The notes under the pieces were generated by a model. The model searched no databases, had not been told where the DNA came from, and saw only the letters and a program-made list of their open reading frames with translations. 64,000 nt of DNA from Patescibacteria group bacterium (GTDB lineage: Bacteria; Patescibacteriota; Microgenomatia; UBA8517), in contig JBBRBD010000002.1 in assembly GCA_038206135.1 (NCBI GenBank), forward strand, positions 2,896-66,895. Direction: 5' to 3'. Position numbers and translations under genes: made by a program. Shown here in pieces: positions 3,590 through 38,970 of this stretch (the first letter of the stretch is position 1; the number at the start of each line of letters is the position of its first letter).

Positions 3590-3590
3590 A

Positions 3591-4283: not shown

Positions 4284-4285
4284 AT

Positions 4286-7541: not shown

Positions 7542-8372
7542 ATGAAATATCTACTGTTATGGTTTGTAAGCGGATTTCTTATTTACATCATAGTACCTCC
7601 GCTTATTGCGGCGGTACCACAATTTCAACAGGAGTTATTCTCTGTTTTTTCTGGTGTAATTCCTTTGTATACAGATCAAATGAAGGTGTTCTCAGTCGTC
7701 TTGTCTGGCCTTTTTGTTGTATTTCTATCAATGCTTGATAGTTTTTTGAGACCCCGTCCAGTTCTTCAGCCACAACAAAATGCCCGTCCCGCAGCTTTCG
7801 TTCCTGTGAATTCTCAAGTTTTAACATCACAAGGAGACCCAGCAGCGTCTAATCCAAGAACAATCACAAGACGTGTACCTCGAACAAATAGCATGGGAAC
7901 TCCGCATCTAGAGCTTAGATCATTCAAGTTAATAGCACACAATGGTATTAATTTTAGACTATCAAAAGGGGATGATCTTACTTCGAAAGAAAAGTTTCGA
8001 CCAGTTATTGAAATTCGGGTAAATAATCCTGAACTTGTTGGGAAAGTATTGCCACTGCAATTTGATTTGATAAATCCAGACGGCAAGATGATTAACAGTT
8101 TAAGATTAATGCCGATATTAAAGCGAGGCCGGAATATAATTGTTCCTGATGACTCAGAATTTGAGGTTTCTAGCAAAGAAGCTGGTGTGTGGGCAATGAA
8201 ACTACTGTATGGTCAGCACTTGTGGGGAAGGCTCATTTTTACAATGTTAGGGCAAAGCATCTCTAACTTATCGAGCCATATTGGGGCAGATATGGAGATG
8301 GATGGTGAAGCTTTACTTGCGGCAAATGAAGTTACTCGAAATTTCACGTTAGAAGATCTGTTAAGACTTTAA
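7542..8372 (+). CDS. Hypothetical membrane protein (2 N-terminal TM helices plus a ~190-aa soluble domain). First gene of the E2/JAB/E1 operon.
   Basis: 276-aa ORF ending 18 nt before the E2 gene start (same strand). Hydrophobic N-terminus (LLLWFVSGFLIYIIVPPLIAAV ; VFSVVLSGLFVVFLSML). Confidence 0.5.
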   Translation: MKYLLLWFVSGFLIYIIVPPLIAAVPQFQQELFSVFSGVIPLYTDQMKVFSVVLSGLFVVFLSMLDSFLRPRPVLQPQQNARPAAFVPVNSQVLTSQGDPAASNPRTITRRVPRTNSMGTPHLELRSFKLIAHNGINFRLSKGDDLTSKEKFRPVIEIRVNNPELVGKVLPLQFDLINPDGKMINSLRLMPILKRGRNIIVPDDSEFEVSSKEAGVWAMKLLYGQHLWGRLIFTMLGQSISNLSSHIGADMEMDGEALLAANEVTRNFTLEDLLRL

Positions 8373-8389
8373 AACAAGGAGAAGATTCA

Positions 8390-8899
8390 ATGTCAAATTG
8401 GTGGATTGATACGGGAAATAGACCTTCCACACGACTTGCGGTGGAGGTTATTGCGATGAAAAAGGCGTTTGTCGAAAAGGAATTAACTGATTTTAAATAC
8501 GGTGCTAGTTGGGACAGGCCTTTTCAAATAAAAACGCTGCGAAAAAAACTTCATATAGAAGGTTCCGCAGCTCCGTATTGGCAACTTGAGTTTGTTATGC
8601 AGCCTATGCCTGGAGTTGCCCCGCTGTTAAATTCATCTGACGTTTTTAAACTTCAGATTCTGTACACTTCTGACTTTCCTGGTAAAGAACCGCAGGCAAA
8701 TTATCTTTCACCAGATGTCAGCGGTTCACTTCATCTATTTGTTAGTGGAAATAAACTGTGTTTGCACAATCACAGCTCAGCAAATAGTGGGTGGGATCCA
8801 GCTCGTTCAACAGCAGCAACTATAGCTGTCTGGTCCATCCAATGGGCCCGAGCATGGCTAAGCTGGAAACTAACTGGTTCTTGGCCAGAAGTACAATAA
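8390..8899 (+). CDS. Ubiquitin-conjugating enzyme (E2/UBC)-like protein, the prokaryotic E2 of an E2/JAB/E1 operon
   Basis: 169 aa. SDFPGKEPQANYLSPDVSGSLHLFVSGNKLCLHNHSSANSGWDPARSTAATIAVWSIQW parallels the eukaryotic E2 core (YPFKPPKV.F....HPNI...G.ICLdiL...WsPa.ti..vL.si). Candidate catalytic Cys is in NKLCL. Strong RBS AAGGAG upstream of the ATG. Confidence 0.65.
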   Translation: MSNWWIDTGNRPSTRLAVEVIAMKKAFVEKELTDFKYGASWDRPFQIKTLRKKLHIEGSAAPYWQLEFVMQPMPGVAPLLNSSDVFKLQILYTSDFPGKEPQANYLSPDVSGSLHLFVSGNKLCLHNHSSANSGWDPARSTAATIAVWSIQWARAWLSWKLTGSWPEVQ

Positions 8900-8906
8900 A
8901 AAGGAC

Positions 8907-9989
8907 GTGAAAAGAATGAATCAAAAAAGAGATTCAGATCGTACGCCGGGGCTATTAGTTCCCCGGCATATCTTTACCAAAATTGCAGCAGAAGCTGCTT
9001 TACATCCTAAGACAGAAACTGGAGCATCTTTTGTAGGCATTGAAACTCATGATCTTATGGTTATCTTAGGGGTTATTCCTGATGAGGTAAACATCGAACG
9101 TTCTCCTGGATTATTTGTGAATGGGGGTGAGTATCAAGTTGAGCTTTTTCGCTGGTACAAAAAACACTGGGATATGATGAGAAAGGAATCTCGGTTGCTA
9201 GAGAACCAGATAAGCTGGTCTGCAACCGTGAAATTACCCTCGAATTATGTCCCACCAGAACTTGATTTCGATTTGAAATATCTAGGTGATTGGCATAAGC
9301 ATCCAGGATCAATGACGTATTTGAGTTCTCGTGACATACGCACAATTGGGAGTATTTTGTCGGATGTTGAGCAAAACCGTCATCAACTGCTGTCTCCAAT
9401 TGTAACAAAGCTTTCAGTACAGAATGACAGTCCTTTGCAGTCACATGAAGTGTCATTCGATAAGTTTCGTATGACTTGGTATTACTCAGCACGTAACATG
9501 ACAAAACCAGTAGGAATTAAATCATTTCCTATTAGTAACTCAAATCTACCTAGTTTGCCTCCAGTTCCGTGGCATCTCAAAGATCTGAGGAGATTTGATG
9601 ACGAGATCATGTACCTTGGGCTAAAAGGCTACCGTGTATTATCACGAATTCGTGATGTGGACAATGATTCTATTTGCGAGGTTGTTTTTTCGATAGAATC
9701 ACCGTGGCAGCCTAAGAAATATTTGGTAGTCACGAAATGGGATTACCCTGAAAGTGCGCCTCAAATCTACCAATATTCGACGATAGCTGAAGGTGATGAA
9801 GGGACACATATTGATGTCCAATCTTCAACAAAGAATGATTATATTGTAGATCTAATATCTACAGAGGAAGGATATCTTTATGAACCAACGCAACAACCAC
9901 TGGACGAGAATAGAAGACCTAGTTGGCTCGGGTTTCTCAAGATTGCGCCAAGTAAAATTAGGCGTTATTGGCCTCGGTTCACTCGGTAG
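8907..9989 (+). CDS. JAB/MPN (JAMM) metalloprotease, a deubiquitinase-like peptidase of the Ubl-conjugation operon
   Basis: GDWHKHPGSMTYLSSRD is an exact HxHx7Sx2D JAMM zinc motif. Upstream acidic residue is in IAAEAALHP. 360 aa. Confidence 0.7.
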   Translation: MKRMNQKRDSDRTPGLLVPRHIFTKIAAEAALHPKTETGASFVGIETHDLMVILGVIPDEVNIERSPGLFVNGGEYQVELFRWYKKHWDMMRKESRLLENQISWSATVKLPSNYVPPELDFDLKYLGDWHKHPGSMTYLSSRDIRTIGSILSDVEQNRHQLLSPIVTKLSVQNDSPLQSHEVSFDKFRMTWYYSARNMTKPVGIKSFPISNSNLPSLPPVPWHLKDLRRFDDEIMYLGLKGYRVLSRIRDVDNDSICEVVFSIESPWQPKKYLVVTKWDYPESAPQIYQYSTIAEGDEGTHIDVQSSTKNDYIVDLISTEEGYLYEPTQQPLDENRRPSWLGFLKIAPSKIRRYWPRFTR

Positions 9990-10743
9990 TTTAACAACAG
10001 TTCAACTCGCGATGTCTGGGGTTCAAAATTTTGTTTTGATTGACCCAGATATTCTTGAAGATAATAACATCGTTAGACACGCAGCAGATTTACGGTATGT
10101 CGGTATGTCTAAAGTTTTGGCAGTTAAGGACTTAATCCTAAATCGAAACTCTGAAGCAACCGTGAATGCAATTTCTGCAAATGTTATGGATTGCACAGAT
10201 GCTCTACATGATGTCGATTTTGTTCTTGTTGCAGGCTTGGGATCAGAGATTGTTACAACAAATGTAGCATTGAAGATTAGAGAACTGAACAAGATAGCAT
10301 TGTTCAGTGGCATCTATGAAAAAGCCGTTGCAGGAGAGGTCTTTATTGTTCATCCAACAATAGGGCCTTGCTACTCATGTTTTGCTAGTCGTTTGAGATC
10401 ATCAGAACCTCAAATACAGAAGGATGTTGATTACGGACTTCCAATTGACGAACTTAAGGCACAACCTGGACTTGGGTCTCATATTGTGAGAGTATCTTCA
10501 GTTTTTGCAGACTGGACATTACGCCTTGCAATCCATGATTCAAATATTTTGCCTTATTTCCCTGGTAATCTTGTAATATTGAGTAATGAGGCGTATAATT
10601 TTGGCAATGACAAGGAAGGTAATGCTCTCAGATTGCCACCTTCGTCTGCAAAGTGGCTTACAATAAAGAAATTACATAAGTGTAATATTTGTAGCCCACC
10701 AGATTTTCTGTTCGAATCGTTCGAAGAACTTGAAGGAGATTAA
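9880..10743 (+). CDS. E1-like ThiF/MoeB/HesA-family adenylyltransferase (minimal E1)
   Basis: Rossmann motif KLGVIGLGSLGSLTTVQLAMSGVQNFVLIDPDILEDNNIVRH (GxGxxG, then D.D.ve.sNl.Rq). Two CxxC pairs (CYSC ; CNIC). Strong RBS GAGGAAGG 8 nt upstream of the ATG at 9880, which lies inside the 3' end of the JAB ORF (110-nt overlap in a different frame). Confidence 0.7.
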   Translation: MNQRNNHWTRIEDLVGSGFSRLRQVKLGVIGLGSLGSLTTVQLAMSGVQNFVLIDPDILEDNNIVRHAADLRYVGMSKVLAVKDLILNRNSEATVNAISANVMDCTDALHDVDFVLVAGLGSEIVTTNVALKIRELNKIALFSGIYEKAVAGEVFIVHPTIGPCYSCFASRLRSSEPQIQKDVDYGLPIDELKAQPGLGSHIVRVSSVFADWTLRLAIHDSNILPYFPGNLVILSNEAYNFGNDKEGNALRLPPSSAKWLTIKKLHKCNICSPPDFLFESFEELEGD

Positions 10744-13406: not shown

Positions 13407-15074
13407 TTATAAACCTTGCTTTTTAGATTGTCCAGATGGCTTGATTTGTTGATTTAGAGCACCTGTTGTATTCTGAGCCTGTCTCAATGTGTCTTCTGTT
13501 CGCTTAGCAGCTTTAGCTTGTTGCCACTCTTCTTGTCTTCTTGATCCAAAAGTTTGGACCCTTCCAAGAACATTGTTAGTTAATTCTTTTCGCACATCTT
13601 TAATTTGTCCTCCTATTGCACCTCCCACAATGCCAGCGCCGAGCATTGTTCCGAATGTGTCAGCTCCATAGCTTCCTCTACCTGAAGCAATTTGATCTCT
13701 CACTCCAGAGGCGATTTTGGGTGCTGAAAAGATGATTCCGAAACCAATAAAGAAGGCAAGAATTTGAATAGGGAAACCTCCAAAACCTGGAAGTAAAATT
13801 GCACTTCCGTTTACTTGGTTTGTTGCAAAGTTGAAGTAGTTTGCACCTCCTGTTAGGATATCTCCGAGCCATCCATTTAAATCAATTGTCATTGTCCAAA
13901 ACACCATGTGTGCTAAGAGCATTGTTAAACAAATAGCTACAAATACAGATAATTGTGCAACCATTTGTCGAATCCAACCACCGATCCCTGGCCCAATTGA
14001 AACCACACCCAGAAGGCCAATAATTGGGGCTCCAATCACCAAAAAGACAATCATAGTGAAAGCTTTAAGCATAGTTACAAATATTCTAAAAATTGCTACT
14101 AGCCCGAGTCCTAGTAGAATTACACCGATAAGTCCGGCTACTGCTCCAACAATTGTTGCGAGTCCACCAGTTGCAATTGTTCCAATTACAGCAGTAGCTC
14201 CTGCTCCAAAGATAAATCCACCTAAAATTATGGTCCAGCCAGTAAATGCTGCAATTGGGTTGTTTAGTTTATTAAAGATGTCAATAACATTTGGAGCACC
14301 ACCTTTAAATAGCCCGCTTTGTGCGACTATTGCAGAGGAAAGTCCCATTACGACATATGCCAAATCTATAATAAGTCCTGCTATTGCATATGAAAAAGTA
14401 ATAAAGATAAGGGCAATTGCAACTTTGGGAAGTGCAGACTGTACACTTACGACTACTTGAGGAGCTATCTTTTGCCTTAACATAATCATAAATGCAAGAA
14501 TAATGATCACAAATGACATGAGTCCAAAAGCAACATTCCTAAATGCTACCCACAATCTTTGGAGTGGTTGAAGTGCTCCGAAACCAGTTCCTTCTTGAGC
14601 ATAAGCATCCTGTACTGGAGAATATTGCCTTATTTTCTGAGCAACATAGTCAATACCAGACGCTGGCTTATGAGATAAAAACGAGTCGGCAGCTCCCGCT
14701 AAAAACAAAACTGGACTACTCAATGGTGCTTCTGCCTGAATGTTTGAAACACATTGTGAAGTATTTGCCCCTGCACTAAAACACTGAGACATTGATCCAG
14801 CCTGAAGTAGCGCAAGGGAATTGACTATCCAATTGACTTGAGCGAACGTATATCTCTCACCAAAAATATCTGTATCATTTGCGCTTCCTGGAGGGAATAC
14901 TTTTGAATTGAATGTGTTTAAATCTGGGTTCCACCATTGGGTAGCATTTCCTGCTGGGGCAGTTTGTGCATGAACATTTGAGATGGGATAGGCCACTGAA
15001 ACAATCACCAATAGAAGTGTTGTAATAGCCAATAATTTATTTTTCATATTTGTAAAAACTTCTATCTTAAACAT
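13407..15074 (-). CDS. VirB6/TrbL-like polytopic membrane protein with N-terminal signal peptide and hydrophilic C-terminal tail
   Basis: 555 aa. Signal-like N-terminus (KNKLLAITTLLLVIVSVAYPISNVHAQ). At least 6 Gly/Ala/Ile-rich TM helices. Charged C-terminus. Sits next to the pilin gene. Confidence 0.5.
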   Translation of the reverse strand: MFKIEVFTNMKNKLLAITTLLLVIVSVAYPISNVHAQTAPAGNATQWWNPDLNTFNSKVFPPGSANDTDIFGERYTFAQVNWIVNSLALLQAGSMSQCFSAGANTSQCVSNIQAEAPLSSPVLFLAGAADSFLSHKPASGIDYVAQKIRQYSPVQDAYAQEGTGFGALQPLQRLWVAFRNVAFGLMSFVIIILAFMIMLRQKIAPQVVVSVQSALPKVAIALIFITFSYAIAGLIIDLAYVVMGLSSAIVAQSGLFKGGAPNVIDIFNKLNNPIAAFTGWTIILGGFIFGAGATAVIGTIATGGLATIVGAVAGLIGVILLGLGLVAIFRIFVTMLKAFTMIVFLVIGAPIIGLLGVVSIGPGIGGWIRQMVAQLSVFVAICLTMLLAHMVFWTMTIDLNGWLGDILTGGANYFNFATNQVNGSAILLPGFGGFPIQILAFFIGFGIIFSAPKIASGVRDQIASGRGSYGADTFGTMLGAGIVGGAIGGQIKDVRKELTNNVLGRVQTFGSRRQEEWQQAKAAKRTEDTLRQAQNTTGALNQQIKPSGQSKKQGL

Positions 15075-15112: not shown

Positions 15113-15427
15113 TTATTTTTGATATATCGTAAAGGTTAAAATCGAGTTTATTCCAATAAATCTAGCAATAATAACAAGCAGTAAGAATGACAATGCTAGA
15201 ACAACAATTCCAATTACTGCATATGTTGCCATGTTTCGTGCGGCTTCCGCTCTTTTAGGGTCACTTCCTGCCATAATAAGGTTAACGCCAGCCAAAAGCA
15301 AAATAATAAAGGCTACAATTCCCGCAAGCGGAATAGCTGCGCGCAAAACATTTGCAAATATATCTTCAAATTCTGAAAGAGTGTTTGGGGTACTAGTTAC
15401 AAGTTGTGCAAAAACTAAAGAGAACAT
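15113..15427 (-). CDS. TrbC/VirB2-family T4SS pilin-like protein
   Basis: 104 aa. Leader then two hydrophobic helices separated by AGSDPKRAEAARNMATY. Same architecture as the tandem pilin paralogs at 20.3-22.6 kb. Confidence 0.6.
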   Translation of the reverse strand: MFSLVFAQLVTSTPNTLSEFEDIFANVLRAAIPLAGIVAFIILLLAGVNLIMAGSDPKRAEAARNMATYAVIGIVVLALSFLLLVIIARFIGINSILTFTIYQK

Positions 15428-15436
15428 AATTATATG

Positions 15437-16912
15437 TTAACTGTTTTTGCAAGAGTTTGGTAGAGGGCGCTCATATAAAACAGAAGCTTCGTCCTCATAC
15501 ACTATTTTCCACACTTTTTTATCAAGTTCCTCTGTCAAATTTATGGGTGATATCTCATTTATCAACTGAGAAGGAGAATTTTCTCTAGTCCATAAAAACC
15601 TGGTGATACAAAATTCTTCAAGTATTGGTTTAATAGGTTCATTTTTAAGACTGAGTGAAATATACGATTGAAGAGCATTTTGTAATTCATTGGGTTTAGT
15701 ATCTTGTCTCCATGGAATCATACGACCGTCAATAAAGACTTTATTTTTTGGAGACTTCCACAAAAGGTATGTATTCCAGTGCAATATTGAAAAAATGTTT
15801 CCTTCATGAGGGTTTTTCGAAATGTAAATGACGGCATTCTCAGGATAAGCTAATTGACTCACAATTATTTTGCTTCGTACGTTTAATATTGTTTCAATAA
15901 TAAGTAAAATAACCCCAAATATAATCGTAATACGAAGAATTTGTAGTAAACGTTTTTTGTCTATCATTTTATTCGCTAAAAATTTATTGCTTGCTTTAAC
16001 GATCACAAAGCTAGCGCTTAAAGCAAAGAGAGGGAGTACTCTTGTTGAAAGCAAACCATTGAGAAGCAGCAGTATCGTAAATATCTCAAGCCATCTGACT
16101 TTCTTTGTCAACCATAGAGTAGTGAAAAACAGTGAGATTAAAGCCAACAAGCTAAAACTAGTAACACGTGTTGCCGGTTGCCATTCAAGTACATATCTAT
16201 TTAAGGGATTTATTATAGTACTGAGTGTCTCTCTCCAAGTACCCAAAAAGTATGGGGTTATTGCTGTGACTAAAGTTGCGGTTAAAACAATGAAAAACAA
16301 ATGCATCTTTAACTTCGAATCAACTGTCTCTGATGAAAAAAGTAAGATGTCTATAATCCAATATCCCCACAGGTATATAACTCCCAGTATAAAACCACCA
16401 TGTAAATTTACCCATAGAAATAGAATTAGCGGAATTGAAATCGCGAGCATTCGAATGTTTTTTTTTGACCGTGACATTAGTGCTATTATTGTCGCTGTCA
16501 ACAGAAAACTAGTTGCTTGAGCACGTGTTCCAAAATTATCCAAACAGCTTGCAGCAAGAAGTGGCATAATCCAAATAGCATTGCCACTCGCTATATAAAT
16601 GCCAATCGTTGCAATTAAAGAGCAAAGAGCAGCGACTCCTACATATCCCAAGTGAAATTTTGAATACACGAGTGCGAAGATAACACTCATACCCCAGGAG
16701 TGGTCAATGTATTTGTATGAGGGCATTGTATAGCTATATGGATCATTAAAATAAAAATTTCCGGAAAGGATGTCCGTCCCGTGCCTCATATGCCAAGGAA
16801 AGTCTGGATCAAGAAATGAATATGCAGCTGCAAATAAGCATATAAATACGATTATCAGAATAAGATTTCTTGCTTTGAAGTATCTTGAAGGCCACTTATT
16901 GATAGTGGTCAT
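15437..16912 (-). CDS. GT-C-fold glycosyltransferase-like polytopic membrane protein (paralog of 18139..19605)
   Basis: 491 aa. About 11 TM helices plus a ~120-aa soluble C-terminal domain. Acidic DPD motif in the first extracytoplasmic loop (FLDPDFPWHMRHGTDIL). Shares YSYTMPSYKYIDHSWG with its paralog. Confidence 0.5.
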   Translation of the reverse strand: MTTINKWPSRYFKARNLILIIVFICLFAAAYSFLDPDFPWHMRHGTDILSGNFYFNDPYSYTMPSYKYIDHSWGMSVIFALVYSKFHLGYVGVAALCSLIATIGIYIASGNAIWIMPLLAASCLDNFGTRAQATSFLLTATIIALMSRSKKNIRMLAISIPLILFLWVNLHGGFILGVIYLWGYWIIDILLFSSETVDSKLKMHLFFIVLTATLVTAITPYFLGTWRETLSTIINPLNRYVLEWQPATRVTSFSLLALISLFFTTLWLTKKVRWLEIFTILLLLNGLLSTRVLPLFALSASFVIVKASNKFLANKMIDKKRLLQILRITIIFGVILLIIETILNVRSKIIVSQLAYPENAVIYISKNPHEGNIFSILHWNTYLLWKSPKNKVFIDGRMIPWRQDTKPNELQNALQSYISLSLKNEPIKPILEEFCITRFLWTRENSPSQLINEISPINLTEELDKKVWKIVYEDEASVLYERPLPNSCKNS

Positions 16913-16951
16913 TTTTGTGATTTCTATTAAATGTAATCATTCATTATTGTA

Positions 16952-18136
16952 TTGAACTCTGTCATAATTCACAATATTTCAGATATGAAAATGTTTTTTA
17001 GAATCCACAAACAAAAAATTAAATATATACTAATTTTGTTTTTATTATCTCGAGTATTTCTAGAAGGAGCAGGTCTGATTGGTGATAGGTGGCTCAAAAA
17101 TGTCAGTACGAACCCTTCAGAGTGGCAAGAAACTAACACTAATATTCCATCCCTTGATATTTGGGCTGTGTGGGATTCTGGATGGTATTTAAATATTGCA
17201 AAATATGGCTATTCAAATGTCACACCAGAAAACCATCCATCAGTAGTTACACCGCAAATGCACAACATTGGGTTTTTTCCGTTGTACCCTGTTTTTATTC
17301 AAGGTATTTCATATATTACTCAAAATAATTATGTTGCCGCGTTAATTGTTTCGAACCTGGCCCTGCTAATTAGTTGTTTTTTACTCTACGAAATTGTTAT
17401 GGAGAAGTATGATGAAATGACAGCAAAACAGACTATAAAGTATTTACTAATTTTTCCCACGTCCTTTATCTTATCTGGTGTTTTTTCTGAGTCTCTTTTC
17501 CTCTTGTTTTTGTTAATATGTTTTTATTTTGCGCAAAAAGGAAAATGGGGAGTAGTTGGTGTCTCTGGTTATTTCCTTTCACTGACTCGGCCTACGGGGT
17601 TTCTACTGGTAATCCCGCTTCTGTTTCTGTATCTAAAAAATTGCAGGTTTGAATTTAAAAAAATAAAACCTAATATCTTATATCTTTCATTATTTGGTAT
17701 GGGAGTTTTTACTTTCATGATTTACACACACCTGTTAAATGGTGATTTTTTAGCCTATTTTCACGCGCAAGAAACAGGCTGGCTCGTCACACATTCTAAT
17801 CCACTAAACATGCTTCAAATGCTCTATTTATATAGTCCAAGCACAAGAATTGTTTTCTGGTTTATACTTGCAGAACTTTTTTTGATTTTTATACATATAA
17901 AGAAAGTTTCACTGGATTATTTGTTAGTCGCTGCAATTTTACTTGGCATACCTCTAATAGAGGGTTTTGGGCCAACTTTCAGTTTACCTAGAATGTCCGT
18001 CGTTGTTTTTCCTTTATTTATAATAATTGCAAAAATGGCAAAAGATAAATATGTTGATAGTGCATTAACATTCGGATTATTATTTCTTCAATTTATATTA
18101 ATGATTTTGTGGAGTAATGGAATTCTGATTATTTAA
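16952..18136 (+). CDS. PIG-V/GT-C-like mannosyltransferase-family membrane protein
   Basis: 394 aa, multi-TM. WDSGWYLNIAKYGY....FFPLYP resembles the conserved motif of PIG-V-type (GT76) and DUF2029-like lipid-linked glycosyltransferases. Confidence 0.45.
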   Translation: MNSVIIHNISDMKMFFRIHKQKIKYILILFLLSRVFLEGAGLIGDRWLKNVSTNPSEWQETNTNIPSLDIWAVWDSGWYLNIAKYGYSNVTPENHPSVVTPQMHNIGFFPLYPVFIQGISYITQNNYVAALIVSNLALLISCFLLYEIVMEKYDEMTAKQTIKYLLIFPTSFILSGVFSESLFLLFLLICFYFAQKGKWGVVGVSGYFLSLTRPTGFLLVIPLLFLYLKNCRFEFKKIKPNILYLSLFGMGVFTFMIYTHLLNGDFLAYFHAQETGWLVTHSNPLNMLQMLYLYSPSTRIVFWFILAELFLIFIHIKKVSLDYLLVAAILLGIPLIEGFGPTFSLPRMSVVVFPLFIIIAKMAKDKYVDSALTFGLLFLQFILMILWSNGILII

Positions 18137-18138
18137 TT

Positions 18139-19605
18139 TTAATAGCAATTCTTTAGAAGATTTTTATGGTACACAACAGATACGGAATCTTCAAATATTA
18201 CAGTCCATCCGTTATCTTTCAACGTTCCGATGAATTTGTAAAAGTCTGCAGGGTTGTACCATCCTGATTTTGTATTTGGGGTGTGCCAAAGGATTGTGTC
18301 AACACAAAATTTCTCGAATATTTCATTATAAGGGATATTACCACTTATTATGTTTTCATACGTATCAAATGCATTATTCAATTCATTTACCTTTGGTTCT
18401 TGTATCCAAACATACATCCTACCATCTATAAATGATTTTTCTGTGGGTATTTTCCAATTCAAGTAACTTCCCCAACTTGCCATAGTAAACACATGTTTAT
18501 GATTTACTTCTTCTATATACGCTATTGAATTATCAGAAGGGAAGAAATCTGACATTATAATGGTGCGGAATCTCAACTGTAAAAGGCACTCAACTACGAA
18601 AACTACTACTGTTATGACGGTTAGTGTATTCAAAAAGAAGTTTAGTCGATGCTTATCTATTTTGTGATCATTCTTCTGTAAATATTTCTCCTGAGCATAA
18701 ATTATTGTTGGTACTGCGCTTATTACAAATATTGGTACAAACCTTACTGACAGTATCCCTTGAATCAAAAGATACACAGTAAAAATATCTCTGAATCTCA
18801 TTTTCTTCAGAAAGTATAATGAGAAAAAAAACAAAAGAATAATAATAACAAACCCAAAACTAGGTAGATTTTTTATTGGCTGCCATTCAATAATATATTT
18901 TCGAAGATCGTTACTTAAGATTGTTCGAGCTGCTTCTCTCCAAGTTCCCAATCCATATGGTGTAAAGAGCGTTGCGAGTGTCGAAATTTGAATTGAAAGG
19001 GTTTTTTGTAACTTGTCTTCAAACGAAAATCTTTTTCTCTCAAGAATATAAATATCTATTAGTAAATACCCCCACAAATAAATTATTCCTAAAGAGAACC
19101 CCCCGTGCAAGTTTGACCACAAAAACATAAAGAGTGGGAGCAGTAAAAACATATTTCTTTTTCTTGAGAAAAAAAAATCAGTAAATTTAAACAAACAGAT
19201 GGTTAAAAAGAATGAAAAGACATGTGCGCGAACACCAAACCCACTAAGATATGAAGATGCAATTATTGGTATAAGCCATATTAACTCGAAGGACAAAAGT
19301 GTTGCTCCGAGAGTTGCAACTCCTGCAATAAAAATTGAAACAAGGCCATATCCTCCTATCTTATAAATGAATTTAAAGATAATGCTAGATAGCAACGAGT
19401 GATCCACATATTGAAAGGAAGGCATTGTGTAGCTGTATTGATCAAATTTAGGAATACCACTGGTTAATATATCTGTGGAATATTTTAAATGCCATGGAAA
19501 ATCTACATCAAAGAAGGTTGTCGCTGCTAAAAACAAGCCAACAAAGCAAACAAAAACAACAGCTTTCCTCGCAGTCAAAAAGTTTTTTATCGTACCGATT
19601 ACCAT
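18139..19605 (-). CDS. GT-C-fold glycosyltransferase-like polytopic membrane protein (paralog of 15437..16912)
   Basis: 488 aa. FFDVDFPWHLKYSTDIL and YSYTMPSFQYVDHS motifs shared with its paralog. Same TM topology pattern. Confidence 0.5.
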   Translation of the reverse strand: MVIGTIKNFLTARKAVVFVCFVGLFLAATTFFDVDFPWHLKYSTDILTSGIPKFDQYSYTMPSFQYVDHSLLSSIIFKFIYKIGGYGLVSIFIAGVATLGATLLSFELIWLIPIIASSYLSGFGVRAHVFSFFLTICLFKFTDFFFSRKRNMFLLLPLFMFLWSNLHGGFSLGIIYLWGYLLIDIYILERKRFSFEDKLQKTLSIQISTLATLFTPYGLGTWREAARTILSNDLRKYIIEWQPIKNLPSFGFVIIILLFFFSLYFLKKMRFRDIFTVYLLIQGILSVRFVPIFVISAVPTIIYAQEKYLQKNDHKIDKHRLNFFLNTLTVITVVVFVVECLLQLRFRTIIMSDFFPSDNSIAYIEEVNHKHVFTMASWGSYLNWKIPTEKSFIDGRMYVWIQEPKVNELNNAFDTYENIISGNIPYNEIFEKFCVDTILWHTPNTKSGWYNPADFYKFIGTLKDNGWTVIFEDSVSVVYHKNLLKNCY

Positions 19606-20237
19606 AACTTGGGTATAAGCCGGAACTTTACGAGAGTAGCGTATCCTTTGTATTTTTTTGAGTTAAATAGCAGTTTTTCCTCGTCAATAATACGCTTATA
19701 AACACAAAACACCCAGAAAGCAAACAAGAGTATTCTCAAAGTTTGAATTGGTGTAAGAATTAAAAACATTGTATTCACCCATAGATATGATAAATACATA
19801 GGATGTCGTATGTATTTATAAGGACCTGCAGTCACAATACCCCTATTTGAAGCAAAAATATCAATGGACTTCCCAAGGCTGTATATTGAATACGCTGTAA
19901 TTAAAGAACCAACAATAACGAGAATATCTACACCTGCTGCGTATCTGAAGTGTCCGAAGCCAAAAAATAGAGGGAGATATGTTCCGAGAATAGCCCAGAG
20001 ATATGAGGTTTTTCTACCTTTAGTGCTATTTGACGGTCGTCGAATCAGAAAAAATAGAGAAAACAAGACATTTGTTACAAGTGCAACTATCGCGAGTGTT
20101 AAATCTCTGTAAAGTAAATATCCAGGAGGAGAAGATATTACTGCATTTCTTAATGAAACAAGAGAACTTAAAAACCCACAAAAATATAAAGCAGAAATAA
20201 GCCCTGAGACGACATAATCTTGAGTAGTATTTCTCAT
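19599..20237 (-). CDS. Isoprenylcysteine carboxyl methyltransferase (ICMT)/phospholipid methyltransferase-family membrane methyltransferase
   Basis: 212 aa. IVTAGPYKYIRHPMYLSYLW matches the RHP.Y signature of the ICMT/PEMT family. Overlaps the GT-C gene by 7 nt, so the two are in an operon. Confidence 0.6.
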   Translation of the reverse strand: MRNTTQDYVVSGLISALYFCGFLSSLVSLRNAVISSPPGYLLYRDLTLAIVALVTNVLFSLFFLIRRPSNSTKGRKTSYLWAILGTYLPLFFGFGHFRYAAGVDILVIVGSLITAYSIYSLGKSIDIFASNRGIVTAGPYKYIRHPMYLSYLWVNTMFLILTPIQTLRILLFAFWVFCVYKRIIDEEKLLFNSKKYKGYATLVKFRLIPKLW

Positions 20238-20303
20238 TTAAGTATCTTATCAAAAAACAAACACTCCATCGAGGAGTGTTTGTAAAAAAACTAATGATAT
20301 TTT

Positions 20304-20645
20304 TTATGTGCCGGTTACGCTTGCAATTGAGAAATTCAAGATCGATACACCAAACACTGTTTGTACTAACTGTGCAATAGCCCATGCTGAGAATATAATT
20401 ACAAGACCAATAAGAGCTGCTGTAATTTGTCCTCGAGCGGCTTCTGTTTGAGCTTTATCTCCACCGGAGAGTACCCAACGGAGACCTCCGACGATAAGCA
20501 TAAAGAAGAAAATAAGTCCTGCAACGGCAACTATTAGTGTAATTGCCCAACTAACTAGATCACCCAATTGAAAACCAGTCGGATTTCCAACTCCACTAGG
20601 ACTTAAGTTGAATGATTGTGCGAACACTGTAGATAATAAATTCAT
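20304..20645 (-). CDS. TrbC/VirB2-family pilin-like protein (paralog 1)
   Basis: 113 aa. Leader, helix, SGGDKAQTEAARGQITAALIG, helix. Same two-helix pilin topology as the other paralogs. Confidence 0.6.
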   Translation of the reverse strand: MNLLSTVFAQSFNLSPSGVGNPTGFQLGDLVSWAITLIVAVAGLIFFFMLIVGGLRWVLSGGDKAQTEAARGQITAALIGLVIIFSAWAIAQLVQTVFGVSILNFSIASVTGT

Positions 20646-20788
20646 GTCATTTCGTCACCTCCTTAAAAGATTTTGTAAAAATCGTATATAATAACACGAT
20701 TCTTTTTTTAATGTCAAACTATACACACATGCTGATAGTTCATATATATTTATCGCGTATTTGGCAGGTAAAAGTCAAGAGGATAGTA

Positions 20789-21130
20789 TTAAGTGGCAGG
20801 TTGCATAAGCGGCGCTAGATTTATATTCAAAAGACTGATTCCAAAGACTGCCTCAACTAGTTTTGCAATTGCCCAAACACTAACCATAACTACCAGCCCT
20901 GTAATTGCTTGTGTTATTTGTGCTCGTGCATTTTCTATTTGAGCTTTATCTCCACCAGATGTAATCCATCTGATACCACCAATTAAAAGCATAAAAAAGA
21001 AGGCAAGGCCTCCAATCATAAACAAGAGCGTAATCATTTTTGGAATGAAGTCTCCAAAAAATGTGGCACCGTCTCCAGTCAGTTTAGGTGTTGCGAGGTT
21101 TGTAATCTGTGCGAAAACTGTTGAGTACAT
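20789..21130 (-). CDS. TrbC/VirB2-family pilin-like protein (paralog 2)
   Basis: 113 aa. TSGGDKAQIENARAQITQAITG loop between two hydrophobic helices. Confidence 0.6.
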   Translation of the reverse strand: MYSTVFAQITNLATPKLTGDGATFFGDFIPKMITLLFMIGGLAFFFMLLIGGIRWITSGGDKAQIENARAQITQAITGLVVMVSVWAIAKLVEAVFGISLLNINLAPLMQPAT

Positions 21131-21135
21131 GATAT

Positions 21136-21504
21136 TTATGGTGTCAGAGTTTTTATTGCTGCAGCAAGATTCAAAATATCAAAACCAAGTATCTGGCCGA
21201 CCAAACTCACGATAAAGACGCTAATCACAACAATTACAAGTCCAATTAGTCCGTTAGAGATGCGTTTTTTAGCCGTTTCTACAGCTCCTTTATCTCCACC
21301 CGCAGTAATCCATCCAATTGCGCCTATGAAAAGCGTAAAAATAAACCAGATTCCAGCAACAACAGTCATTACAGCAATGATTGTTGAGATAAGCTTTTCA
21401 AAATTTGCTGCGGGATCTCCACCAGTTGCAAAAATTCCAGTTCCAGGTCCGGAGAAGCCACCCGTAGTTGGTGCAAAATCTAATGTGCCTGCAAGTCTAT
21501 TCAT
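21136..21504 (-). CDS. TrbC/VirB2-family pilin-like protein (paralog 3)
   Basis: 122 aa. TAGGDKGAVETAKKRISNGLIG loop. 5-nt gap to neighbours. Confidence 0.6.
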   Translation of the reverse strand: MNRLAGTLDFAPTTGGFSGPGTGIFATGGDPAANFEKLISTIIAVMTVVAGIWFIFTLFIGAIGWITAGGDKGAVETAKKRISNGLIGLVIVVISVFIVSLVGQILGFDILNLAAAIKTLTP

Positions 21505-21505
21505 A

Positions 21506-21838
21506 TTAAAATGTTAAAGTAGGGTGTAAAAGCGCATCTGCTTTTCCATAAACAAGTAACCCAATTACACCGGCGATCAGGAATGCTCCAACTAAAAATA
21601 CAAGGCCTATGATTGTTTGATATATTTTTGCCCACGCCGATTCCATCCCTTTAGGATTATCACCAGCTGCTAAGAATGCGTAACCTGCCAAGATAAAATT
21701 AAGAAGTGCCCAGATCCCTCCAGCAACAATAAGAACATTAAAAATAAGTTGCAATATGTTTCCAAGCGCAGTTGCTGGGTTACTTCCCCAAACTGCAGTA
21801 GCAGGGGGTTGGTGAATTGTTCCAAAAGGATCAGTCAT
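21506..21838 (-). CDS. TrbC/VirB2-family pilin-like protein (paralog 4)
   Basis: 110 aa. AAGDNPKGMESAWAKIYQTIIG loop between hydrophobic helices. Confidence 0.55.
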   Translation of the reverse strand: MTDPFGTIHQPPATAVWGSNPATALGNILQLIFNVLIVAGGIWALLNFILAGYAFLAAGDNPKGMESAWAKIYQTIIGLVFLVGAFLIAGVIGLLVYGKADALLHPTLTF

Positions 21839-21880
21839 ATAAGTTAAATAATAATAGCAAATAAAAGCTTCAATTGAAAA

Positions 21881-22237
21881 CTACGGACAAGGATTGGTAG
21901 GTGTTCCACAAGAACTTACATTTGGTCCTGTAATAAAATTGACACCAGTAATAGACTCCACAATTCTTATTATAAAAAATGAAGCTAGAACAACAATGAA
22001 CCCAATAACCGCCCAAGTTATCGCTTGGTGACCTTGTGCTGAAGCTTTTGGGTCATTGTTCCCAGCACCCATTATTACTTGTAAACCTCCACCTACAAGA
22101 AGGAATACTACAATGACACCAGCAACAACTAATGATCCGCTCAAAATAATCGAAACTAGATCGCCGATGCTTTTTGTCTGTCCAAACGGTGTATTTAGTT
22201 CTTTTCCAATATCTACGGCTGCAAAAATATTAGTCAT
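21881..22237 (-). CDS. TrbC/VirB2-family pilin-like protein (paralog 5)
   Basis: 118 aa. MGAGNNDPKASAQGHQAITWAVIG loop. C-terminus contains Cys (…SSCGTPTNPCP). Confidence 0.55.
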   Translation of the reverse strand: MTNIFAAVDIGKELNTPFGQTKSIGDLVSIILSGSLVVAGVIVVFLLVGGGLQVIMGAGNNDPKASAQGHQAITWAVIGFIVVLASFFIIRIVESITGVNFITGPNVSSCGTPTNPCP

Positions 22238-22243
22238 AAATGT

Positions 22244-22624
22244 TTATACAAATGTGCTTGTGATCCCCGGCAAGTTAAATATAGCGCCAATAATTTGAAT
22301 TATGATATAAGCCGTGAGCATGAGCAACAAACCAAGAAAGCCATTCTTAATTCTTTCTTGTCCTGCCTTAACTTTAGCAGGATCACCAGCCGCCGTCATA
22401 AGACTGATCCCTGCAAGCACCAAGTTGATAATGAGTGCAATACCTCCTAAATAAAACAAAAGCCCGACTATTCCATATGGGTAATTGTTGATCAAATTTG
22501 AGAGGTTTGCGTTTCTTAGCAAATAACTGTTGCCTGGTGTCTGATTAATTGACTTTTCAAGATCATCCAAACAACCTGCATTAAAAGTACCAGCAGGGCA
22601 TGCTGCTAAAATTATTGAATACAT
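22244..22624 (-). CDS. TrbC/VirB2-family pilin-like protein (paralog 6)
   Basis: 126 aa. TAAGDPAKVKAGQERIKNGFLG loop. N-terminal region has two Cys residues. Confidence 0.55.
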   Translation of the reverse strand: MYSIILAACPAGTFNAGCLDDLEKSINQTPGNSYLLRNANLSNLINNYPYGIVGLLFYLGGIALIINLVLAGISLMTAAGDPAKVKAGQERIKNGFLGLLLMLTAYIIIQIIGAIFNLPGITSTFV

Positions 22625-22639
22625 AAATTATTGTAACAT

Positions 22640-24157
22640 CTAAAAAAGCCCGAGTACATTAACTCCAATTATTCGTAAAATAAAGACAGCAAATGCAAGC
22701 ATTACAAGGCCAGAGAATGCAGAGATTAAAAGTTCTTTTCCCATTTGGAGTTTCGAGACATCTCCACTGCTTGTAATAATTTGGAATGCTGCGGCAATAA
22801 GAACAAGAATTACGAGTCCACCACCAATGCCCAAACCCCATGTTATGAAAAAAGCTTCAAAATTGGTAATAGTCTCAATTGGCACACAACCGATTGCGGT
22901 ATCCACACCTATGATTCCTGCCTTGTTACAATATCCAGCGAAAGCGGCGATGGCAGAGGGTGGTGCAACTTGATTGCATGCCGTTAGGGTAGGACAGCAA
23001 TAGTCAATACTTGTTCCCGTATTAGGAACTGATCGAGAGCAATATACACCACTTGCTTTTGCACAATCAGCGCGACTAATTCCTCCGGGGATACAGGTAT
23101 TCAGAGGCACGCTGCAAATTGAGCCTCTACAACTCCCAGACATACATTCTGAATCAGTTGTACAAGTCCCGGCGAGGGGAATTCTGTTTTCTTTACATTT
23201 ACAAACACCACTACTTGCTTCTATATCAATATCACCCTGTAAACAACTAAATGAGTTGTTTTGTGAGCTATAACAACAATAGCCTCCAATTGAGCCACAA
23301 CCATTGTTATTGGGGATTACACAACTGCCTATCATTGATTGATTAAAGTTTGAACCTGAAGCGTCTACTGGATTAATCCAACAACCATTACATTGACTTT
23401 TGGTGGTACTTCCTTGGCAAGTGATACTCACCACTCCTGCACATTGTCCTCCTCGATTTCCACAATTAAAGTTTCCTGTTTGAACTTGCTTTGTACAAAC
23501 TCCAGGAGCTACAGCTCCGCTTGCGGGAGATGTTGTACACCAATAATTGTCACCACCTACGCATGTAAACCCATTCAGGGCATCACATTGGTCGTTTGTA
23601 ACACATGAAGTTCCATCTCCTCCTTGGCCAGGTATTGCCCCCGGGAGACACTTGCTTCCGATACAAGTAAGACCTTGTTTGCAAGGGTTTGTCCCGGAAC
23701 ATGCCTCGCAAGTATCTGGAAGAGCCGGAGGTTGTGATGAAACAGTTACAGATCCGCTGCAAAGATCTGTTTGTGAGCCCAACAATCCTGCTTGTCTAAA
23801 AACAAGCGTGTTAGCACCATCTACAAAAAGGGGATTACCATCGTTATCGTTCAAAACGGTAAAAGTCCCTCCTGTGTCTGAAATTTGATTCCCAACATCA
23901 ATCCATTTTCCCGTTGAAGGAGAATATATATTGAATGTCGAGTTGGATTTTGATATCCCGCCAAATCCACCCGAGATTTGCATTTCAATATTGTTTCCTG
24001 GTTGAACAGTTGCTGTTAAAACAATCAAATCACAGCTTGCAGCACTGACAGTATTAGGCTTAATACCTGATAAGCATAAGAATAGTGCGCTTATGAGGAA
24101 CAGCAATAAGAATCTCTTCGAATTTTGTAATAACAATTTTCCTTGGTGGAAATTCAT
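22640..24157 (-). CDS. Secreted Cys-rich protein (about 400-aa extracellular domain with more than 40 Cys in CxxC/EGF-like spacing) fused to a C-terminal TrbC/VirB2 pilin domain
   Basis: 505 aa. Signal peptide (KRFLLLFLISALFLCLSGIKPNTVSA). Long Cys/Gly/Thr-rich region. C-terminus FFITWGLGIGGGLVILVLIAAAFQIITSSGDVSKLQMGKELLISAFSGLVMLAFAVFILRIIG is the pilin two-helix module. Confidence 0.6.
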   Translation of the reverse strand: MNFHQGKLLLQNSKRFLLLFLISALFLCLSGIKPNTVSAASCDLIVLTATVQPGNNIEMQISGGFGGISKSNSTFNIYSPSTGKWIDVGNQISDTGGTFTVLNDNDGNPLFVDGANTLVFRQAGLLGSQTDLCSGSVTVSSQPPALPDTCEACSGTNPCKQGLTCIGSKCLPGAIPGQGGDGTSCVTNDQCDALNGFTCVGGDNYWCTTSPASGAVAPGVCTKQVQTGNFNCGNRGGQCAGVVSITCQGSTTKSQCNGCWINPVDASGSNFNQSMIGSCVIPNNNGCGSIGGYCCYSSQNNSFSCLQGDIDIEASSGVCKCKENRIPLAGTCTTDSECMSGSCRGSICSVPLNTCIPGGISRADCAKASGVYCSRSVPNTGTSIDYCCPTLTACNQVAPPSAIAAFAGYCNKAGIIGVDTAIGCVPIETITNFEAFFITWGLGIGGGLVILVLIAAAFQIITSSGDVSKLQMGKELLISAFSGLVMLAFAVFILRIIGVNVLGLF

Positions 24158-24163
24158 ATGTGT

Positions 24164-25087
24164 TTAAAATAACCCAAGAATAGTTATCCCTAGTATTCTA
24201 AAAATGAAGACTGAAAGTGCTAGTAGAATAATTCCAGAAACGGCAGACATCAAAAGCTCTTTTCCTACTTGTAATCTTTTTGGATCTCCTTGTGATGTCA
24301 TTACCATAAACGAAGCATACACTAAGAATAGTGTACCAATTCCTCCCGCGATACCTAAGCCCCATTTAAGGAAAAAAGCGGCAAATGTGTTAGTATCGCC
24401 AATCGGTATGCATCCAATTGCAGTATCAATATTGTTGGTACTGCAATTTCCTTGAATATTAACACTCGTAACTGGCTGGGTTCCAGTCCCCGGATTTCCA
24501 ATTTGTCCGTTTGGGAGACAGCAGGACGAAACATTGCTGGGACAGCTACCGGTTATTGATGTTTCTGTTCCACTACAAGCTGTTTTGCATGTTGCTTTTG
24601 GATTCACTGAAGTACACGCACCTGGATTAACAGCAGTTGTACAAGCAGAGGCACAGGTTGCTGAGTCTGTGTATGGAGCAGGTGGGCCACTTGTGCAATC
24701 AGGGATTGATGTCTGTGGATCATAATCACATTGAGAGCAAGATTTAGCGCCAGTAGCCGAGGTATCACACTTATAACCTCCATTGGGAACTGTTTGTGTA
24801 GTACAAGGGATAAATAAAGGCTGATTAATACAAGAACTCACTGGTTGGCTCCGACAAAATGAAAAAAGATCTGAGCTCGGAGGGGTAGCTCCCGTAGCAC
24901 AACTATTGGCAGCTGGATTGCCTCCTGGAGCTGGACCCGTTTCACAAAATTGTGTTGCATCTTGATATACACAAACAACACAACCTTTACTGGGGTCAGG
25001 ACAAGACGATGCTTGAGCTAATACTTCTTTTTTTGAAACATTGAACAACAAAAAGACTAGGACTATGAATGATATTGCTTTTTTCAT
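24164..25087 (-). CDS. Secreted Cys-rich protein fused to a C-terminal TrbC/VirB2 pilin domain (smaller paralog of 22640..24157)
   Basis: 307 aa. Signal peptide. Cys-rich extracellular domain. C-terminus FFLKWGLGIAGGIGTLFLVYASFMVMTSQGDPKRLQVGKELLMSAVSGIILLALSVFIFRILG. Confidence 0.6.
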   Translation of the reverse strand: MKKAISFIVLVFLLFNVSKKEVLAQASSCPDPSKGCVVCVYQDATQFCETGPAPGGNPAANSCATGATPPSSDLFSFCRSQPVSSCINQPLFIPCTTQTVPNGGYKCDTSATGAKSCSQCDYDPQTSIPDCTSGPPAPYTDSATCASACTTAVNPGACTSVNPKATCKTACSGTETSITGSCPSNVSSCCLPNGQIGNPGTGTQPVTSVNIQGNCSTNNIDTAIGCIPIGDTNTFAAFFLKWGLGIAGGIGTLFLVYASFMVMTSQGDPKRLQVGKELLMSAVSGIILLALSVFIFRILGITILGLF

Positions 25088-33354: not shown

Positions 33355-33426
33355 GTACTCATAGCTCAATGGATAGAGTAGCGGCTTGCGGAGCCGTCGA
33401 TCCCAGTTCGAATCTGGGTGGGTACA
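33355..33426 (+). tRNA. tRNA-Arg-like with apparent anticodon GCG (G34 rather than the usual A34 of tRNA-Arg ACG)
   Basis: Manual fold. Acceptor GTACTCA/TGGGTAC. D stem GCTC/GAGT. Anticodon stem GCGGC/GCCGT with loop TTGCGGA. T-arm CCCAG TTCGAAT CTGGG. Body resembles the tRNA-Arg(CCG) at 37913. Confidence 0.55.
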
Positions 33427-33433
33427 CAAGTAG

Positions 33434-33548: not shown

Positions 33549-33636
33549 GGAGAGGTCGCATAGTGGCCTAGTGCAGCGGTTTACTAAACCGCCATATCGC
33601 AAGATATCGAGGGTTCGAATCCCTCCCTCTCCGCCA
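33549..33636 (+). tRNA. Class II (long variable arm) tRNA with apparent anticodon ACT (A34) and encoded CCA. A Ser-type body with an unusual anticodon.
   Basis: Acceptor GGAGAGG/CCTCTCC plus G plus CCA. D stem GCA/TGC (3 bp, Ser-like). Anticodon stem GCGGT/ACCGC with loop TTACTAA. 17-nt variable arm. T-arm GAGGG TTCGAAT CCCTC. Confidence 0.5.
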
Positions 33637-37812: not shown

Positions 37813-37824
37813 CTCTTCCAATTT

Positions 37825-37906: not shown

Positions 37907-37912
37907 CAACGA

Positions 37913-37986: not shown

Positions 37987-37999
37987 CAATCAAAGATCT

Positions 38000-38908: not shown

Positions 38909-38970
38909 ACTGCAAACATATTAAACTTCAAGTTCGTTTTTAAGTCTACCAATGTAAGGAGAGAGTTCCG

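Follow-up and report, generated by a model that had tools for sequence, protein, structure and literature searches.

A proposed GT-C glycosyltransferase and methyltransferase module embedded in a VirB2-like pilin operon of a Patescibacteria type IV secretion locus

Why should membrane sugar-transferases and a membrane methyltransferase be encoded inside an array of pilin genes? The question is raised by a 64,000-nucleotide stretch of DNA from a Patescibacteria group bacterium (Microgenomatia; assembly GCA_038206135.1, contig JBBRBD010000002.1, positions 2,896 to 66,895), hereafter the window, in which four such genes lie among the VirB2-like pilin genes of a type IV secretion system (T4SS), an arrangement that suggests a sugar-coated pilus or cell surface. 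We propose, tentatively and at somewhat less than an even chance, that the four genes form a module for the assembly and tailoring of a surface glycan that was recruited into the T4SS pilin operon. The pilins themselves are a plausible, unproven acceptor, a claim we hold with the same reserve, and a general role in envelope glycan synthesis is nearly as likely. All coordinates below are those of the window.

An earlier note on this DNA, made from the letters alone, had described four open reading frames here. All four are present and tightly packed, every motif that it quoted occurs in the sequences, and the genes are as follows (aa, amino acids):

15437-16912, minus strand: GtA, 491 aa, GT-C-fold glycosyltransferase of a family that we call A1
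16952-18136, plus strand: middle protein, 394 aa, PIG-V/PMT_2-like GT-C-fold enzyme, divergent from GtA and convergent with GtB
18139-19605, minus strand: GtB, 488 aa, paralogue of GtA
19599-20237, minus strand: membrane methyltransferase of the ICMT/PEMT superfamily, 212 aa

GtA and GtB are indeed paralogues, with 39% identity across 482 residues (E 2e-108), and their first-loop motif reads LDPDFPWH in GtA and FDVDFPWH in GtB. Neither protein matched Pfam or NCBIfam at E <= 0.1, and an A1 family profile of 53 sequences found nothing among PDB sequences. An AlphaFold2 model of GtA was computed on the 53-sequence A1 alignment and reached a predicted local distance difference test score (pLDDT) of 93 and a predicted TM-score (pTM) of 0.92. 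When this model was compared with the PDB by Foldseek, each of the 17 best matches was a GT-C enzyme, headed by STT3 (E 2.4e-7, query-normalised TM-score 0.59-0.64); DPY19, PglB, ArnT, AftA and EmbB were the other GT-C enzymes matched. These results bear out the GT-C fold proposed for both paralogues, GtB being itself a row of the A1 alignment with all invariant columns present. A fold outside GT-C, such as that of a transporter, had been named as what would overturn this assignment; transporters appeared only at E > 0.3 with a TM-score of about 0.1, so the assignment stands.

The A1 family has the conserved acidic first-loop residue that marks the GT-C superfamily: directly past the first membrane helix, D35 is present in 52 of the 53 aligned members and D37 in all of them. 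The other invariant residues are W167, N169, H171, P220, P357, F393 and D395, and R397 is also kept by both paralogues. The N-terminus of GtA is rich in Lys and Arg, which by the positive-inside rule places it probably in the cytoplasm and turns the Asp loop outward. In the model, the last membrane helix is followed by an alpha/beta domain made up of residues ~355-491, in agreement with the soluble C-terminal domain predicted for these proteins. GtA would thus probably have the usual GT-C layout, in which Asp35 and Asp37 lie in the first outer loop and the C-terminal domain is outside the cytoplasm. We consider the GT-C fold and the type of pathway well supported.

The middle protein, which carries the motifs WDSGWYLNIAKYGY...FFPLYP, had been labelled PIG-V-like. 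This label holds for the family (A2) better than for the protein: of 44 homologues, 21 match PF04188 (PIG-V), the best of them at E 6e-13, and 21 match PMT_2, whereas the window protein itself has no PF04188 match at E <= 0.1 and only a marginal one to PMT_2 (26.7 bits against a cut-off of 26.1). Beyond that marginal match it has nothing of the PMT/GT39 type, being 394 aa long and lacking a MIR region. Its predicted structure (pLDDT 92.7) is again of the GT-C type, since all of the 44 best Foldseek matches have that fold; STT3, AglB, ALG9/12/3, ArnT, PIG-U, PimE and PIG-M are among the matches. D75 of the WDSGWY motif, in the first extracytoplasmic loop, is invariant in the 44 A2 sequences. 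The A2 profile found nothing among PDB sequences, and alignment of the A1 and A2 profiles by hhalign gave a probability of 10%, which makes them separate GT-C families at the sequence level. The true start of the middle gene is likely the ATG at 16985, because an identical public protein (P0121) begins 11 residues later than our reading frame. We dropped the idea that this gene is a window-specific insertion, since PIG-V-like genes directly adjoin A1 genes in other loci (L010, L033 and L042).

The presence of PIG-U among these matches, together with the lack of a donor-synthase gene in the window, could be read to mean that the GT-C-fold proteins are non-catalytic and serve as scaffolds or chaperones of pilin insertion, much as PIG-U does in the glycosylphosphatidylinositol (GPI) transamidase, or as transporters. 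The invariance of polar residues disfavours this: the Asp-x-Asp motif, N169, H171, D395 and R397 persist in GtA, in GtB and throughout the 53 diverse members. With transporter folds as distant as described above, we regard a non-catalytic role as highly improbable.

The 212-aa protein is an ICMT-family methyltransferase, as had been claimed: it matches PF04140 at 41.2 bits against a cut-off of 24 (2.3e-10), and it also matches PF04191 (PEMT) at 4.7e-7. RHPMY and IIDEEKLL make up the RHPxY...EE cofactor-binding region, and PDB sequence searches matched Ma-ICMT (4a2n; residues 131-193, in the C-terminal half) and 8xku. The isoprenylcysteine methyltransferase equivalog model NF040696 gave 37.2 bits against a cut-off of 160. 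The 7-nt overlap reported between this gene and GtB is real: the stop of the former and the start of the latter share ATGGTAA at 19605-19599, so that the two are probably translationally coupled. The same overlap is present in the related locus L007, and the gene order around the methyltransferase gene is kept in L006, L007 and L008. We tried more distant ICMT homologues as a guide to function and set them aside, as only the clade of the window joins ICMT to GT-C and pilin genes and the farther homologues lie in unrelated loci. One of these, a distant ICMT-type homologue with 31% identity (L092, 1335-1976), sits inside a locus that resembles a type III secretion or flagellar export system, with FliP, YscJ/FliF, FliMN_C and FHA proteins; this secretion context may be coincidental.

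The setting of the four genes is given by the following features:

15113-15427, minus strand: VirB2-like T4SS pilin gene (PF18895, 1.1e-8)
13407-15074, minus strand: VirB6-like candidate, a polytopic membrane protein of 555 aa conserved beside pilins
20257-20283, minus strand: terminator-like hairpin (11-bp stem, then a T run) between the last pilin gene of the array and the ICMT gene
20304-22624, minus strand: array of six VirB2-like pilin genes (PF18895 for 20304-20645; all six found at E 1e-33 to 1e-41 by a hidden Markov model (HMM) of the window pilins)
22640-24157 and 24164-25087, minus strand: two pilin fusions, in each of which a signal peptide precedes a large, Cys-rich secreted domain and a VirB2-like hairpin forms the C-terminus
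1637-5383, minus strand: T4SS core with the VirB4 ATPase, a TrsD-like and a PrgI/VirB3-like protein (matches to NF045971, TrsD, PF19044 and PF12666)

Both flanking pilins, at 15113-15427 and 20304-20645, match PF18895 (T4SS_pilin) above the Pfam cut-off, which confirms that the module lies between pilin genes. The Cys-rich fusion proteins gave weaker matches to the same model (9.4e-5 and 1.6e-4) over their C-terminal ~70 residues, and the HMM built from the window pilins recovered nine pilin genes, which all fall within 15113-25087. VirB4 scored 381.6 bits against a cut-off of 325 with NF045971, the CD1110-family model. VirB4, TrsD, PrgI/VirB3 and VirB2-like pilin arrays thus occur together, as in a patescibacterial T4SS locus, with VirB6 unconfirmed, and the wider locus corresponds to the patescibacterial MPF-FATA-like T4SS of PMC12102498. 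The label VirB6-like given earlier to the 555-aa protein could not be upheld by any Pfam, NCBIfam or PDB sequence match; VirB6 is difficult to detect in Microgenomatia, according to PMC12102498. Homologues of this candidate adjoin pilins or A1 genes in L004/L009, L025, L032, L035 and L044.

GtA, the pilin gene and the gene of the VirB6-like candidate are co-directional and separated by gaps of only 9 and 38 nt. In a scan of one genome per species, the closest relatives were Woesebacteria. A relative at 62% identity (Woesebacteria GCA_027347685.1) has the order ICMT, GT-C, GT-C, pilin, VirB6-like candidate, followed by PrgI, TraC-like and VirB4. Two Logan contigs at 45% identity carry three pilin genes, ICMT, GT-C, GT-C and pilin, with an identical 7-nt ICMT/GT-C overlap and an identical 9-nt gap between GT-C and pilin; by locus, the 9-nt spacing is seen in L004/L009 and L008. 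The order ICMT, GtB, GtA, 9 nt, pilin, VirB6-like is kept in three lineages at 45-62% identity. The arrangement is rare, since a protein search and the species-level genome scan together gave these three lineages, and a metagenome scan with GtA returned only relatives at 24-26% identity and no further members of the operon clade. In a neighbour-joining tree, the GT-C genes of this clade form a long-branch clade of their own.

A possible origin of these genes is suggested by gene order elsewhere. The usual order in Woesebacteria and related Microgenomates is c3 (a 188-aa protein), NUDIX, PIG-V-like, A1, DnaG, RpoD (L010, L030, L040 and L023). In the corresponding stretch of the window (37330-41603), the slot from NUDIX to DnaG (37330-39837) is taken up by a pair of tRNA genes, the UbiA gene and two short open reading frames, with no A1 or PIG-V-like gene, and the only A1 and PIG-V-like genes of the window are those in the pilin array. 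We propose that the GT-C module moved from the side of dnaG and rpoD into the VirB2-like pilin operon in a Woesebacteria-like lineage.

The same facts can be read another way. The genes may serve a general envelope-glycan pathway, producing and tailoring a lipoglycan, a glycolipid or a broad set of surface glycoproteins, as A1 presumably does next to dnaG and rpoD in other Microgenomates, and their place in the array may be a lineage-specific rearrangement inside a block of the chromosome that was linked beforehand, which implies no specific pilin substrate. The order from NUDIX to RpoD in those four loci is ancestral, and as the window holds no other A1 copy, the genes in the array may have to serve the general role. 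What a mere rearrangement accounts for less well is that the 9-nt spacing between GtA and the pilin gene and the co-directional VirB6-like candidate were kept in three lineages as far apart as 45-62% identity, and that the relocation went together with gene duplication, with a long branch and with the recruitment of a new type of methyltransferase. Independent juxtapositions of A1 genes with pilin arrays in Saccharibacteria and in L025 also speak against it. We regard this explanation as a serious contender that nevertheless falls short of being probable.

The A1 family at large bears directly on this choice. We estimated its size by scanning all of 1.84 billion cluster representatives (50% clustering) with HMMER; 41,328 members passed E <= 1e-3, and the number at the stricter E <= 1e-30 was 19,151. 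No Pfam domain was present among the 120 members listed. Its signature motifs are LDPDFGWH, LWANLHGGF and KVFIDGRM. At least 493 A1 loci were found in the scan of one genome per species, and the family occurs in Microgenomates, Kazan, Saccharibacteria and other bacteria of the candidate phyla radiation (CPR) as well as in Binatia, Nitrospirota, Acidobacteriota and Chloroflexota.

For a census of neighbours, genes were called and clustered in 81 non-redundant A1 loci, within 5 kb. A 309-aa GT2 enzyme with C-terminal membrane helices lies near A1 in 14 of the 81 loci and is homologous over its full length to GtrB (5ekp, E 4e-82), ArnC and DPMS. Other GT-C enzymes are frequent as well: PMT_2-like proteins occur in 10 loci, GT87 in seven and the PIG-V-like family of the window in six, and three cluster representatives of ~900 aa (P0262, P0271 and P0292) are fusions of a PimE-like GT87 enzyme to A1. 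In seven loci, A1 is accompanied on the same strand by a gene for a membrane-anchored Methyltransf_11 protein; further partners are a carbamoyltransferase, a second type of GT87 and an MFS/Acatn-like transporter. Methyltransf_11, carbamoyltransferase and MFS/Acatn partners make tailoring, as by a methyltransferase, a recurring theme. In Kazan and other CPR loci (L049, L052, L054, L068 and L086), A1 is operonic with WxLIP_PGBD+LysM surface proteins and an unannotated protein of ~200 aa. Housekeeping neighbours are also common, with DnaG and RpoD in 13 loci each, SmpB and ComF-like in 10 each and SpoIID in nine, and pilin genes lie within 5 kb of A1 in 10 of the 81 loci.

From these recurrent partners, A1 looks like one step in an outer-face, often tailored glycan assembly that depends on polyprenyl-phosphate sugars. 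The GtrB/ArnC/DPMS-type GT2 genes point indirectly to a polyprenyl-phosphate-linked sugar as a possible donor for A1. The GtrB-like, GT87 and PMT_2-like partners, the fusions and the methyl- and carbamoyl-transferases are just as expected of a general envelope-glycan pathway, as is the spread of A1 through phyla without PF18895 pilins at its loci.

Two other genes of the window had been suggested as possible suppliers of lipid-linked donors. One, the gene at 38000-38908 and the only one of the UbiA family, lies 18 kb away, scores below the cut-offs of the generic prenyltransferase models and is never an A1 neighbour elsewhere, so we find no backing for such a role. The other, at 61496-63028, had been called GT39-like; neither Pfam nor NCBIfam models matched it, profile comparisons related it to neither A1 nor A2, and the name is not supported. 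This gene (minus strand) encodes a 510-aa polytopic protein with the motif VDEAVVGYDAYS past its first membrane helix, and its product could be a third kind of GT-C enzyme.

How close, then, is the link between A1 and pilins? The density of pilin genes is 0.07 per kb at <= 1 kb from A1 and 0.013-0.043 per kb at 4-10 kb, both figures resting on small counts. In L064 and L024 an A1 gene lies about 1.1 kb and about 1.2 kb from a pilin gene, and further loci show distances of 2-7 kb; L064 and L065 are from Saccharibacteria. Several observations weigh against a specific link. In L025, the A1 gene is inside the pilin array and on the strand opposite to the pilins, and in L065 it is 53 bp from a pilin gene, again on the opposite strand. 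Close packing of A1 and pilin on the same strand was found for three of 90 A1 genes, all of them from the window's own clade, and the commonest operon neighbours of A1 are DnaG, other GT-C genes and methyltransferases. The genes for pilins, SpoIID, SmpB, NUDIX, DnaG and RpoD make up a block that is conserved in Microgenomates, and inherited gene order thus accounts for part of the closeness of A1 and pilins within 10 kb. Within the window, the hairpin at 20283-20257 splits the upstream pilin array from ICMT and GtB. No pilin genes turned up in the A1 loci of Binatia, Nitrospirota, Acidobacteriota and Chloroflexota, and for a family of more than 41,000 members that includes phyla without pilins at its loci, pilins cannot be the general acceptor. 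The window has no GtrB-like gene by tblastn. GT87-type partners such as PimE are best known for the assembly of glycolipids and lipoglycans. Finally, glycosylation of bacterial conjugative (VirB2-type) pili has not been described, according to PMC9905601.

The suggestion that these enzymes decorate the pilins thus survives in part. It is favoured by the packing of GtA, pilin and VirB6-like candidate, conserved in three lineages. Also in its favour are the NUDIX-to-DnaG slot emptied of these genes, the A1 genes in or next to pilin arrays in L025, L065, L064 and L024, the higher pilin density close to A1, and the WxLIP surface-protein clusters that adjoin A1 in other CPR loci. A1 at large is a general glycan-pathway family found mostly in housekeeping and glycan contexts.

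The pilins themselves have features of interest in this respect. The small pilins (15113-15427 and 20304-22624) have no Sec signal peptide and begin with M-x(2-6)-[VIL]FAQ or similar, followed, before the first membrane helix, by an uncharged tail of 20-35 residues rich in Ser, Thr, Pro, Gly and Asn. Judged by its composition, this N-terminal tail is a plausible target of O-glycosylation. Mis-called starts or recoding were ruled out as the reason for the absent signal peptides by upstream in-frame stops and a good ribosome-binding site before the ATG at 20645, and the sequences suggest that the small pilins may have a truncated leader or a different route of insertion. In other CPR loci (L025 and L065), by contrast, the pilins carry complete signal peptides that end with AQ or AA. 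The Cys-rich fusions could be pilins that bear an adhesin-like module; long pilin fusions recur in the CPR loci L020, L024, L025 and L081.

In the mechanism that we put forward for the recruited glycan module, a GtrB-like GT2 synthase encoded outside the window would charge polyprenyl phosphate with a hexose on the cytoplasmic side of the membrane. The ICMT-type enzyme, standing in for the Methyltransf_11 partner of other lineages, would then methylate the lipid-linked sugar or another inner-leaflet substrate. In ICMT structures the cofactor site faces the cytoplasm, and the same is expected here, which would make a lipid-linked intermediate a likelier substrate than exposed pilin termini. The intermediate would be flipped, and the GT-C enzymes would use the Asp-x-Asp of the first outer loop to transfer sugars successively to an extracytoplasmic acceptor, most likely the VirB2-like pilins, at their N-terminal tails, or else the Cys-rich fusions. 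No GtrA-like flippase turned up, in searches of which none was aimed at GtrA. We infer the donor, the methylation step and the acceptor; the fold, the acidic loop, the packing with its conservation and the partners are observed. Decoration of pilin tails, or of a pilus lipid, with (methyl-)sugars by the duplicated GT-C pair and the ICMT-type enzyme, all co-transcribed with the pilin and VirB6-like genes, would constitute the first dedicated modification system for VirB2-type pilins, an outcome that we think rather unlikely.

The lipid itself might also be the substrate, with the ICMT/PEMT-type enzyme and ArnT-like enzymes modifying the head group of a pilus-bound lipid or of a lipid scavenged from the host and so adjusting the surface or the lumen of the pilus. 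The match of the methyltransferase to both the ICMT and the PEMT (phospholipid methyltransferase) models would fit, as would the appearance of ArnT, a lipid-modifying GT-C enzyme, among the structural matches of both GtA and the middle protein, and the genes sit within a pilin operon. PMC9905601 describes T- and F-type pili as stoichiometric assemblies of pilin and lipid, and conjugative pili are co-polymers of pilin and phospholipid. The best fold matches are nevertheless the protein-modifying STT3, DPY19 and PglB rather than ArnT, and GT87 and GtrB partners indicate the building of oligosaccharides, so that we consider lipid tailoring very unlikely.

Across Patescibacteria, both the T4SS and arrays of VirB2-like pilins are conserved, and PMC12102498 cites earlier work in which they were essential for epibiotic growth of a cultivated Saccharibacterium. 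If our reading is true, a glycosylation and methylation module in the pilin operon would be a testable route to surface diversification towards hosts. A pilin-linked GT-C enzyme is already known from TfpW; what is new here is a pilin-linked GT-C module in a T4SS context with an ICMT-type partner. Independently of its acceptor, A1 merits definition as a family of its own, since its cluster representatives number more than 41,000 and neither Pfam nor NCBIfam has a model for it.

Other features of the window were noted in passing. Within the T4SS locus, a four-gene island (7542-10743, plus strand) comprises genes for two proteins of 276 and 169 aa, for a protein with a JAB domain and for one that is ThiF/E1-like. 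The 169-aa protein gave repeated weak matches to E2 ubiquitin-conjugating enzymes (E 0.2-0.9), the ThiF/E1-like protein matches MccB, UBA5 and Cap2, and by these likenesses the island looks like a ubiquitin-like conjugation or Bil/CBASS-type module. In the closest relative (L004/L009), Pfam annotation of the equivalent region showed neither a JAB nor a ThiF domain. ARAGORN predicted, in a cluster on the plus strand, a tRNA-Ser with anticodon ACT at 33549-33636 and a tRNA-Arg with anticodon GCG at 33355-33427; the window has five tRNA-Ser genes, and a serine tRNA with A34 is unusual. The S-adenosylmethionine synthetase at 47058-48281 (plus strand) matches the archaeal-type model PF01941 at E 2e-110, in a genome that seems to be bacterial (CPR).

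Set against known systems, each component has a recognizable counterpart. The methyltransferase has in common with Ste14 and Ma-ICMT the PF04140 domain, the RHPxY...EE region aligning to 4a2n and the build of a small polytopic membrane protein, but it falls far under the equivalog cut-off and no CaaX-type substrates are evident. The middle protein resembles PIG-V/Gpi18 (GT76), given that half of the A2 family matches PF04188 and that the GT-C fold and a WDxxWY first-loop motif with an invariant Asp are common to both; it differs in being a bacterial protein with no GPI pathway, and no solved PIG-V structure was among its Foldseek matches.

In STT3, PglB and AglB (GT66), the best structural matches, the first outer loop contains an Asp and the membrane module is followed by a C-terminal domain outside the cytoplasm, as predicted for A1. 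GtA and GtB differ from them in having neither an STT3 Pfam match nor the WWD motif (WWDxG), the C-terminal domain of A1 is far smaller (~135 residues), and its partners imply monosaccharide donors on polyprenyl monophosphate rather than en-bloc transfer of an oligosaccharide.

Two glycan pathways resemble A1 in their logic. The actinobacterial pathway to phosphatidylinositol mannosides, lipomannan and lipoarabinomannan (PIM/LM/LAM), with the GT2 enzyme Ppm1 and PimE (GT87), combines several GT-C enzymes with a polyprenyl-phosphate hexose synthase, as is seen around A1; the module of the window differs in being embedded in a T4SS pilin operon and in carrying an ICMT-type methyltransferase. To our knowledge, CPR bacteria do not make PIM or LAM. 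The Gtr systems (GtrA, GtrB and GtrC), as outlined in PMC11127046, make the donor inside and transfer it outside by a GT-C enzyme, as would hold for A1, but here there are several GT-C enzymes instead of one, and tblastn found no GtrB-like synthase in the window.

TfpW of Pseudomonas aeruginosa Pa5196, a GT-C enzyme that arabinosylates a type IV pilin and whose gene lies beside that of its pilin (as reported in the account of it in 10.1101/2020.04.19.049825), was the model for the earlier note. The pilins of the window are VirB2-like (PF18895) rather than type IV, so that no PilA-type neighbour is present, and no genes of the decaprenyl-phosphate arabinose (DPA) pathway, the source of a D-arabinofuranose donor, are linked. 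The window further differs in that a pair of GT-C paralogues is joined by another GT-C enzyme and by an ICMT-type methyltransferase, and the normal context of A1 is not pilin-linked. By fold and gene context, TfpW is still the nearest functional analogue: the same account has it acting at the outer face on a polyprenyl-phosphate sugar donor, beside the pilin that it modifies.

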